Part shown: piece by piece, positions 2,100 through 4,216 of the stretch
Numbering within the stretch: the first letter of the stretch is position 1
How the letters are laid out: each line of letters opens with the position of its first letter
Assembly: GCA_027487145.1 (NCBI GenBank)
Contig: JAIYEC010000069.1
Span: 1 to 42,994 of the forward strand
DNA length: 42,994 nt
From: a bacterium
GTDB taxonomy: Bacteria > Patescibacteriota > Minisyncoccia > Phycocordibacterales > UBA918
Reading direction: 5' to 3'
Program-made: the position numbers and the translations under genes
Notes under the pieces: model-generated
Databases searched by the model: none
What the model saw: the letters and a program-made list of their open reading frames with translations, nothing else
Told to the model about the DNA's origin: nothing

Positions 2100-2732
2100 A
2101 TGCAACAACTAACTGAGGCCTTAGCGTGGCGATACGCTGTCAATCAATTTGATACAGAAAAGAAAGTCCCTGAAGAAACAGTAGAGAAGATTTTGACGGC
2201 AGGTAACCTTATGCCAACTGCGTATGGATTACAACCGTTTGCTTTTGTGGTAGTGAGTGACGAAGCAATCAAGCAGTCTTTGATTGAACATGCGTATGGT
2301 CAAAAACACGTAGCAGAAAACTCGCACTTAATTGTTATTGCAGCTCGAACTGATATTGATGAAGCGTTTGTTTCTGAATATACAGCGAGAATTGAAGCAA
2401 CAAGAAACCTGCCAGCTGGTTCTGCAGATGGATTTAAGACAGTGATGGTGGGAGATATTGTTGCTCGCACTGAAGCAGAGCGTATCGTGTGGGCCAAGCG
2501 ACAAGCGTTCCTCGCGCTTGGTGGCATGATGGCTCAGGCTTCATTACTTGAGGTTGATAACCATGCACTTGAAGGGTTTAGCCCAAGTGGATTTGATGAG
2601 GTACTAGGGCTTAAAGAAAAGAACCTTACCGCCGGAGTCCTTTTAGCAATCGGCTACCGTTCAGCGACTGACGAATGGCAACACTACGCTAAAGTGAGGC
2701 GAGATCTCAGTGATATTGTTATTGAAAAGTAA
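2100..2732 (+). CDS. nitroreductase-family NAD(P)H oxidoreductase
   Basis: 210 aa. N-terminal L..RY.V..F......V.EE..E.IL pattern and overall nitroreductase-like layout. Divergent from an HxlR regulator, which is a common pairing. Confidence 0.75.
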   Translation: MQQLTEALAWRYAVNQFDTEKKVPEETVEKILTAGNLMPTAYGLQPFAFVVVSDEAIKQSLIEHAYGQKHVAENSHLIVIAARTDIDEAFVSEYTARIEATRNLPAGSADGFKTVMVGDIVARTEAERIVWAKRQAFLALGGMMAQASLLEVDNHALEGFSPSGFDEVLGLKEKNLTAGVLLAIGYRSATDEWQHYAKVRRDLSDIVIEK

Positions 2733-2735
2733 GCG

Positions 2736-2762
2736 AAAATCCGGCCAAAAGCCGGATTTTTT
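2736..2762 (+). terminator. rho-independent terminator of the nitroreductase gene
   Basis: aaaatccggc-caaaa-gccggatttttt, a 10-bp stem followed by a T-run, 4 nt after the stop. Confidence 0.75.
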
Positions 2763-2778
2763 GCACAAGGGCTGCCTA

Positions 2779-2806
2779 TTGAAATGCACCGAGAAAACTG
2801 TACAAT
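2779..2806 (+). promoter_or_regulatory. sigma70-like promoter of tRNA-Asn
   Basis: TTGAAA (2779-2784), 16 nt spacer, TACAAT (2801-2806). Confidence 0.5.
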
Positions 2807-2831
2807 GGTGCAACTTGAATAATTCTCAAGT

Positions 2832-2903
2832 TCCGCGGTAGCTCAGCGGTAGAGCAGTCGGCTGTTAACCGATTGGTCGTAGGTTCGAATCCTACCCGCG
2901 GAG
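2832..2903 (+). tRNA. tRNA-Asn (anticodon GTT)
   Basis: Cloverleaf folded by hand. Acceptor tccgcgg/ccgcgga, D arm gctc-agcggta-gagc, anticodon arm gtcgg-ctGTTaa-ccgat (GTT at 2864-2866), variable loop tggtc, T arm gtagg-ttcgaat-cctac, discriminator G. CCA is not encoded. Confidence 0.95.
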
Positions 2904-2920
2904 CTTGAGAATGATTCAGC

Positions 2921-2950
2921 AAACACACACCTCACGAGGTGTGTGTTTTT
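2921..2950 (+). terminator. rho-independent terminator after tRNA-Asn
   Basis: aaacacacacc(tcacga)ggtgtgtgttttt, a GC-containing stem followed by T5. Confidence 0.8.
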
Positions 2951-3027
2951 GCAATGGTAGATGGATGAAGTAGTAGTTGTGCTAAAAAACCAGTACGTAG
3001 AAGGTGAAAACAAAGTAAGACAAATGA

Positions 3028-3056
3028 TTGACATACTATATGTTGCATGTTACAAT
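3028..3056 (+). promoter_or_regulatory. near-consensus sigma70 promoter
   Basis: TTGACA (3028-3033), 17 nt spacer, TACAAT (3051-3056) preceded by TGt (extended -10). It drives the GC-rich island downstream. Confidence 0.65.
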
Positions 3057-3062
3057 AATTAT

Positions 3063-3350
3063 CGGTTTGTCAGAACGTTAAGGAGCTGAAAATGGGTTTC
3101 AAATTACCGAGACTGTCTCGTCGTCGGCATGGTGGTCTCGTGCTGCCAAATACTGATCATCCGCAATGCCGACATGGAGAAATTCATGTCGCGGACGTGA
3201 TCAGCAAGTTCGTGTACTGGGAAACCGGCCGGATCGGAAGGCCGTACCGGCGAGCGCGGGGAGGTGAAAGGGTGTATCCGGTCTTTGTCTCCAGAGATGA
3301 AATTGCCAAGAGAAGGCCGCACCTTCTGTCACGTCTTTAGACCGACACGA
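3063..3350 (+). ncRNA. unclassified GC-rich structured-RNA candidate (alternative: 82-aa Arg-rich ORF 3092-3340)
   Basis: The island is clearly more GC-rich than its flanks, has its own promoter and terminator, and has no downstream gene on this strand. It is open on both strands (82 aa on +, 72 aa on -). Helices seen: gtcggcat 3123-3130 / atgccgac 3166-3173; gacatg 3171-3176 / catgtc 3185-3190; tgatca-t-ccgc 3154-3164 / gcgg-acg-tgatca 3191-3203; cggcc 3226-3230 / ggccg 3240-3244; agaagg 3311-3316 / ccttct 3322-3327. Counter-evidence: AAGGAG at 3080-3085 lies 6 nt upstream of the ATG at 3092. Confidence 0.4.
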
Positions 3351-3404
3351 CCCCCAACATTTTTGCCGTCAACTACGAAAAAGCTAGTTGGGGGCTTTTT
3401 CTTT
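3351..3404 (+). terminator. terminator of the GC-rich island transcript
   Basis: cccccaac (3351-3358) pairs with gttggggg (3387-3394) and is followed by cTTTTTcTTT. An inner alternative stem is caacta/tagttg. Confidence 0.55.
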
Positions 3405-3621
3405 CCCAAAATAAGTTCAGTGTCGTATCTGCTGTGATTACTGTCACTTTAAAATTTTATAATTTGAACACGCTTACTAATTCATAAAAAATGTTATATA
3501 GTGAATGATATGACACGAATAATTGCATTGAGTCCAAAGAAGAAGACCAAAAAACCGCCATATAAATCACCAGCTCGGTTGGCTGCCAAGAAAGAACTGT
3601 TGGCTAAGAAAAAGAAGAAGT

Positions 3622-3658
3622 AAAATAAAACACCACATATCGTGTGGTGTTTTATTTT
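3622..3658. terminator. bidirectional hairpin terminator
   Basis: Perfect 16-bp stem aaaataaaacaccaca / tgtggtgttttatttt with loop tatcg, and A/T runs on both sides. It abuts the stop of the minus-strand gene at 3658. Confidence 0.8.
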
Positions 3659-4188
3659 TACGAGAGTTGACTTGATCGGAGTTCTTGAAGACGTTGTAGT
3701 AAAGCGATAAGCTCCGTGAGTTGTCTTATCTTTGCTTTCAGTTCCGCCTGGGTAGCCGGACTCTTGGCGATGCTTGGTTTTATATCCCAACACGATCGAG
3801 CCGGTTCCCATGGTGTTGTGCTTTGCTGTTCGTAGAGATGTTTAGCGTATCCAAGGTTACCTTCAAGGGTGGTGATGTCAAACCCAAGCGCTTTGGCAGG
3901 TTCTGCGTGGATGCTCTCAAAAAACTGAAAGATACCAACCATGCCACCACTGTCACCACCTCGCAGGACAGTTCCGGCATCGGTGAACTGCCTGAAGTTC
4001 GATTCACAGCGAGCAATTTCAATCATGACCGGAGTGTCTTTAAAGAATTCACGTACTCGTTTTTCAGAAGCCTCTCTTGATAGAGGCGTTGCGGTGGCTG
4101 TTTTAGTTTTGGTAGCCGCTTCTGCATTGGTGGTCATCCCAAAAACTAATAGACAAGAAAGTACCGTACACGTATATATGATTTTCAT
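3658..4188 (-). CDS. secreted transglycosylase-like (lysozyme-like) domain protein
   Basis: Signal peptide MKIIYTCTVLSCLLVFGMTTNAEA. IARCESNFRQF...GGMVGIFQF resembles the CES...G.(L/F)Q(F) signature of the transglycosylase-like/Rpf-type domain. Start set to the ATG at 4188, which has TATAAT 8 nt upstream; the track start at 4197 is TTG. Confidence 0.6.
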   Translation of the reverse strand: MKIIYTCTVLSCLLVFGMTTNAEAATKTKTATATPLSREASEKRVREFFKDTPVMIEIARCESNFRQFTDAGTVLRGGDSGGMVGIFQFFESIHAEPAKALGFDITTLEGNLGYAKHLYEQQSTTPWEPARSCWDIKPSIAKSPATQAELKAKIRQLTELIALLQRLQELRSSQLS

Positions 4189-4216
4189 AGGGTGCAATTA
4201 TACACCAAGAGTAGGT

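Follow-up and report, generated by a model that had tools for sequence, protein, structure and literature searches.

The window analysed here, that is, the whole stretch of DNA under study, is 42,994 nt long and corresponds to one contig (C7) of a 0.83-Mb Patescibacteria genome that is assembled into 75 contigs, 98.6% complete and 44.6% GC. The tiny genome and the features of its 16S rRNA are in keeping with that placement. At one locus in this window a tRNA-Asn(GUU) gene and a short Lys-rich open reading frame (ORF) are separated by DNA that carries a putative promoter, a Shine-Dalgarno (SD) box, an 82-codon ORF and a predicted terminator. The features of the locus, in window coordinates, are as follows.

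2779-2806, plus strand: putative promoter of tRNA-Asn, TTGAAA-16-TACAAT, kept in two congeners, i.e. in three genomes including this one
2832-2904, plus strand: tRNA-Asn(GUU) without an intron, identified by ARAGORN and by Rfam (RF00005, 73.6 bits); left anchor of the locus
2920-3500, no strand assigned: lineage-specific insertion of ~570 nt between tRNA-Asn and the Lys-rich ORF, with boundaries good to about 15 nt
2921-2948, plus strand: perfect 13-bp hairpin followed by TTTTT, located by a repeat search (fold -19.2 kcal/mol, z -4.5), within the insertion
3028-3056, plus strand: sigma-70-type putative promoter TTGACA-17-(TGt)TACAAT, with -35 at 3028-3033, -10 at 3051-3056 and TG at 3048-3049
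3080-3085, plus strand: canonical SD box AAGGAG, 6 nt upstream of the ATG at 3092
3092-3340, plus strand: 82-codon ORF (9.6 kDa, pI 11.4, 15 Arg), with no homologue
3104-3322, minus strand: opposite-strand open frame of 72 aa
3153-3204, plus strand: interrupted hairpin of 20 bp with a GAAA tetraloop, within the ORF at codons 21-38
3351-3404, plus strand: predicted intrinsic terminator, in which the stem CCCCCAAC/GTTGGGGG encloses an inner helix and is followed by CTTTTTCTTT; it starts 10 nt past the stop codon
3510-3623, plus strand: conserved Lys-rich ORF of 37 codons; right anchor of the locus, outside the insertion

The preliminary description of this DNA held that no gene follows the terminator on this strand, but the Lys-rich ORF does. 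By tblastn it has matches in four congeners at 76-86% identity, and comparison with the congener G079 gave 11 synonymous and 3 non-synonymous changes. This bias towards synonymous change indicates that the ORF is a real gene; it is also a trustworthy right anchor. Convergent on a bidirectional terminator at 3622-3658 is a 179-aa ORF (3658-4197, minus strand, TTG start as listed) without a Pfam family. By eye, the N terminus of its translation has a hydrophobic segment, possibly a signal peptide, and its absence, as listed, from the protein collection that we searched suggests that the true start may differ. At the other side of the locus, an inverted repeat (2822-2830 and 2904-2912; in a wider version 2816-2838 and 2896-2918, 23 nt, 91% complementary) lengthens the tRNA-Asn acceptor stem into both flanks. 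This repeat is not common to G054 or G079, in which the flanks differ.

The gap between tRNA-Asn and the Lys-rich ORF is 21 nt in G079, 46 nt in G054 and 47 nt in G098 versus 605 nt here, which leaves ~570 nt (2920-3500) that are extra in this genome. The extent of this insertion was called from an alignment with G054 and G079, after a search for the tRNA-Asn region in 127 congeners. In relatives the Lys-rich ORF, lying 21-47 nt past tRNA-Asn, is probably co-transcribed with the tRNA. The inserted DNA consists of the hairpin at 2921-2948, the cassette made up of promoter, SD box, ORF and terminator, an AT-rich tail and, inside that tail, a new extended -10 element. From its form, the hairpin is likely to terminate the tRNA-Asn transcript; in the alignment it is missing from both G054 and G079. 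The extended -10 element, TGtTATATA at 3492-3500, stands 9 nt upstream of the ATG of the Lys-rich ORF, a position from which it would supply that gene with a new promoter and a nearly leaderless mRNA. A DNA search with the insertion returned no match in the 127 congeners, and blastn returned none among phage and plasmid records.

The junction at which this DNA lies is used by much larger elements elsewhere in the genus. In G004 an island of 14.4 kb fills the very junction between tRNA-Asn and the Lys-rich ORF, and in G124, G004, G114 and G042 a gene for a large serine recombinase (with Resolvase, Recombinase and Zn_ribbon_recom domains) adjoins or overlaps the 3' end of tRNA-Asn, with which it is convergent (L096:12186-13757, L097:13795-15297, L099:2071-3624 and L095:2646-3632). 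The recombinase gene of G042 is seemingly split, into parts of 329 and 126 aa. Judging from these gene arrangements, the 3' flank of tRNA-Asn is a site at which large-serine-recombinase islands insert in this genus. The insertion described here shares that insertion point, and the island of G004 likewise ends at the Lys-rich gene. Unlike the islands, it measures only ~570 bp, carries neither recombinase nor cargo, lacks a repeated tRNA 3' end and does not resemble them in sequence: no recombinase ORF was found in 2905-3505, the best matches to a tRNA 3' end copy or att scar near the insertion were no better than those in shuffled sequence, and neither blastn nor tblastn detected similarity between the insertion and five congener islands. 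The ends of the terminator, CCCCAAC...GTTGGGG, recall the core sites of integron attC elements, which we take to be RYYYAAC/GTTRRRY, with each side missing one position. A search of the genome for an integron integrase (TIGR02249) recovered sub-threshold Xer-like recombinases only (94 bits against a cut-off of 265).

The preliminary description had leaned towards a stable RNA, and here our results point the other way. Using cmscan with Rfam over 2900-3700, both at the gathering score and at E <= 10, we found nothing in 3060-3400 apart from a noise-level match to an IRES model on the minus strand, and ARAGORN found no tmRNA at the cassette. RNase P RNA lies on another contig (C3, 122 bits). We rejected the housekeeping RNAs as a class (RNase P RNA, tmRNA, SRP RNA and 6S RNA), there being neither a covariance-model match nor conservation in congeners. 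A canonical tmRNA of ~394 nt is present in 30 of 40 congeners, whereas Rfam and ARAGORN found none in this assembly; as smpB stands at a contig end (C22:2370-2789), ssrA probably falls in an assembly gap. The Rfam models for small SRP RNA (RF00169) and 6S RNA (RF00013) also detected nothing in this assembly. The preliminary description had named as refuting an island that is absent or unconserved in relatives and not expressed. The first half of this holds: no homologous island stands beside tRNA-Asn in congeners, and none of the genomes searched contains one. Since the cassette is missing both from the congener locus and, by DNA search, from all 127 congeners, it has no conserved or housekeeping RNA role.

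A second RNA candidate arose from the congeners themselves. At least 19 of them (loci L046-L064, such as L053:261-501 and L050:233-463) have a group I intron of 220-600 nt, scoring 51-87 bits with RF00028, that interrupts tRNA-Asn(GUU) within the anticodon loop. Such introns resemble the cassette in size (220-330 nt), in being GC-rich and structured, and in their location at the tRNA-Asn locus. The cassette differs from them in lying outside the tRNA and in having no RF00028 match at E <= 10, even though the same model detects 19 of 19 congener introns, and a displaced group I intron was accordingly rejected. Taken as a whole, the feature is very probably an insertion specific to this lineage rather than a stable RNA that is conserved.

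The signals that the preliminary description had recognised in the cassette are all present in the sequence. The promoter matches the consensus at 11 of 12 positions and has the TG in addition, which makes it the best site in 2600-3800. Sequences of the form TTGACA-N16-18-TAnAAT occur twice in the 830-kb genome versus 2.4 times expected by chance, and the version with TGn occurs once, here; by itself, then, the promoter is not beyond chance. The SD box is spaced as had been claimed, at 6 nt from the ATG at 3092. There are 80 sites of the form AAGGAG-N4-9-ATG in the genome, counting both strands, and by our arithmetic roughly 0.01 pairs of promoter plus SD/ATG are expected, so that the combination does exceed chance. 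The two frames open on opposite strands (82 and 72 aa), and the 15 Arg of the former, are as had been reported. The frame from the ATG to the terminator remains open in 6% of dinucleotide shuffles, and from this fraction and base composition we calculate a joint chance of roughly 4e-4 for the SD/ATG together with the open frame. For the hairpin proposed as a terminator, at 3351-3396 with CUUUUUCUUU after it, the folding energy is -16.8 kcal/mol (z -2.7); its T-run is on the plus strand only, and a simple terminator scan missed the hairpin because of its long loop. What exceeds chance is the succession of promoter, SD/ATG, open frame and terminator in this order.

The cassette also looks foreign to its host. 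The GC-rich island of the preliminary description is real: its GC content peaks at 0.57, where the genome averages 0.446, and this places it near the 99th percentile of 250-nt windows. It is not extreme, however: 70 regions of the genome attain a GC content of at least 0.56, and the cassette region ranks about 40th among them. Its ORF has a codon score of -0.11 bits per codon compared with 0.26 +/- 0.09 for 346 long host ORFs, about 4 SD below them. The SD box is a further oddity. SD 4-mers precede 24.1% of candidate starts in the host versus 23.3% of internal control positions, which amounts to no enrichment, and the 3' end of the host 16S rRNA (G000:C47:5555-7014; L100:2940-2962) reads GGATTAATTCC, not GGATCACCTCC as in other bacteria, and is without CCTCC. 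Loss of the anti-SD sequence has been described in part of the Parcubacteria (PMC9297842). In a host that has neither a canonical anti-SD nor SD enrichment, a perfectly spaced AAGGAG looks imported, and would be most simply explained by the cassette having evolved in an SD-using organism. The SD box may thus not be read by the host. The native, conserved promoter of tRNA-Asn has the same -10 hexamer as the cassette, so the cassette promoter should work in the host, and the leader (3063-3130) has no significant structure (z -0.14), so that the start codon should be accessible and translation without SD pairing is conceivable.

The statement that the 82-aa product matches nothing known survived a much wider search. 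An exhaustive phmmer search of 1.84 billion representative proteins returned no homologue; three matches were internally repetitive proteins that aligned in several stretches, and these were rejected. Searches of Pfam, NCBIfam, PHROGs, PADLOC and PDB sequences with both ORFs gave noise only (UXX-star at E 0.16, oMTase at 12.4 bits, glutamate dehydrogenase at E 0.67), and the oMTase lead was gone in a six-frame search of the genome. The 82-aa ORF had no Pfam match at E <= 1. A likeness to excisionase/HTH_17 (PF12728) that we saw by eye found no Pfam support for the ORF and was set aside; true HTH_17 genes are readily found elsewhere in this genome and in the genus. A word-indexed set of 5.8 billion clusters, queried with the forward and the reverse ORF at near and longer lengths, contained nothing, ESM Atlas gave no usable match, and scans of metagenome, genome and viral contigs with back-translated patterns found none. 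Six-frame ORF searches covering the 127 congeners, together with 400 genomes each from the order and the phylum, produced nothing above chance level; the matches fell in an intergenic frame and in a GC-rich sigma-factor gene read in alternative frames.

Exact 22-mer scans yielded a single identity, of 25 nt, between window positions 3224-3248 and leuS on a metagenome contig of 66% GC (L101:6800-6824), with RYGLPIRPV as its minus-strand peptide; the exact scans of genome and viral sets were empty. We rejected this identity as a sign of kinship: it does not extend collinearly, and in a collection of this size we judge it to be chance. The 82-aa ORF is not in a collection of 15 billion proteins in which its neighbour gene is present and in which the species is represented by this genome alone; from this it follows that the gene caller of the source had not called the ORF. 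A single-sequence AlphaFold2 model had a mean pLDDT of 43, a value that is uninformative and not negative.

Several lines of evidence bear on whether the cassette encodes a protein. Coding is favoured by the geometry of the SD box and ATG, by the exact fit of the ORF to the transcription unit, and by the codon score, for which this frame is the best of six. It is weakened by the lack of a homologue, by the foreign codon usage and by a host ribosome without a canonical anti-SD. The composition of the ORF (18% Arg; rich in Arg, Gly, His and Pro; C-rich at first and G-rich at second codon positions) resembles that of random GC-rich translation, and the reverse strand is open too. The very stable 20-bp hairpin within the coding frame also counts against a protein. 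The ESM recognition score of 2381, set against a value of 2300 that is reached by 91% of known families and by 9% of shuffled sequences, may be a weak sign of protein-likeness. The likeliest product of the cassette would be a small, very basic, probably disordered protein that we infer to bind nucleic acid. With an RRR cluster near its N terminus, it would in these respects recall lambda N, which we take to be an Arg-rich-motif peptide of like character, and the hairpin with a GNRA-type cap in the cassette's own transcript would presumably parallel boxB. The analogy with lambda N is one of function alone, as sequence similarity, a nut-site context and a phage operon are all lacking.

We judge it about an even call that the locus holds an orphan cassette of moron-like design, acquired from elsewhere, whose product is a basic protein of 9.6 kDa. 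On this interpretation, the ~570 bp that the lineage gained lie between tRNA-Asn and the Lys-rich gene that is its direct downstream neighbour in relatives. The insert would form an insulated, stand-alone unit, composed of a tRNA terminator, a near-consensus sigma-70 promoter, an SD-bearing leader of 28 nt, the 82-codon ORF and an intrinsic terminator, and its AT-rich tail would bear the new extended -10 for the Lys-rich gene. It is the GC content, the codon usage and the SD-led design, all foreign to the host, that lead us to read the unit as acquired. It counts against this reading that no recombinase, att scar or likeness to the congener islands points to a route of acquisition.

As far as the definition quoted in PMC4378225 goes, a moron is a single gene with its own promoter and terminator, situated between genes that are adjacent in related genomes. 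Within the terms of that definition the cassette is like the morons of phages: one ORF is provided with what appear, as sequence signals, to be a sigma-70 promoter and an intrinsic terminator, it sits between genes adjacent in relatives, and its base composition is unlike that of its neighbours. Unlike morons, it is chromosomal, being flanked by tRNA-Asn and a conserved mini-gene with no recognisable prophage, and it has no match in phage or viral collections and none to a PHROG. We regard the resemblance as architectural and not one of descent.

A competing account, which we consider doubtful though it has real points in its favour, is that the segment is a functionless relic of a mobile island that once occupied tRNA-Asn and has been mostly deleted, so that its signals are fossils or products of chance. 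The occupied integration site in G004 and the serine recombinases that adjoin tRNA-Asn in four congeners are consistent with such a history, as are the restriction of the segment to this genome, its lack of relatives, its atypical composition and a count of perfect -35/-10 pairs in the genome that equals the chance expectation. Against it, every signal is intact and correctly spaced, and the ORF is uninterrupted. The insert moreover resembles none of the five congener islands examined; a recombinase fragment is lacking, and the best candidates for a decayed tRNA 3' end only equal those in shuffles. Genomes of 0.8 Mb usually shed useless DNA, which we also count against a relic.

We think it unlikely that the cassette specifies a species-specific non-coding sRNA, or a dual-function RNA, of ~340 nt (about 3063-3404), with the ORF and its SD box being incidental or left over from a donor. 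A strong putative promoter and a terminator of its own would suit such an RNA, and the hairpin at 3153-3204 with its GAAA loop is outstanding (-24.9 kcal/mol, z -5.27, with none of 200 shuffles as stable). The whole transcript folds with a z of -2.18 (3 of 100 shuffles are as stable), but the reverse strand is not far behind (z -1.81), and the remaining local helices do not surpass shuffled sequence (z +0.22 and -0.14). The two open strands are as expected of GC-rich non-coding DNA, and codon usage unlike that of host genes, the lost anti-SD and an ORF that the gene prediction of the source passed over are likewise in keeping with an RNA. Set against these are the lack of an Rfam family at E <= 10 and of conservation anywhere, and the finding that no part of the cassette has significant complementarity to the rest of the genome. 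In addition, an AAGGAG placed 6 nt before an ATG that opens the longest frame, with the stop codon 10 nt before the terminator, would be an unlikely accident.

A further reading, which we hold to be quite improbable, is that of a functional, recently imported regulatory module without known relatives. It would be either a novel sRNA, structured or of dual function, with the GAAA-capped hairpin at its core, or an Arg-rich peptide with that hairpin, in the mRNA that encodes it, as its binding target, much as lambda N binds boxB. That the segment is an assembly artefact, with chimeric DNA of another metagenome organism inside the contig, is hardly credible, for although its composition and signals are foreign, the assembly is in 75 contigs and the species is this genome alone in the protein collection, the sequence on both flanks is native and syntenic, the insert has AT-rich host-like parts and a putative promoter that suits the downstream native gene, and no long repeat at the junctions explains a mis-join.

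Taken alone, the cassette is one orphan insertion and matters little. Its analysis strikes a candidate new stable RNA off the list and establishes a 37-codon Lys-rich ORF as a real, conserved gene. More broadly, the locus offers a clean, small example of the gain of DNA by a streamlined 0.83-Mb Patescibacteria genome, at the junction that mobile islands use in its relatives, and a canonical SD box in a host without an anti-SD would mark such DNA as imported from an SD-using organism. Should the reading as a regulatory module be true, the locus would present an SD-led gene that is expressed even though the ribosome of its host no longer has the anti-SD.
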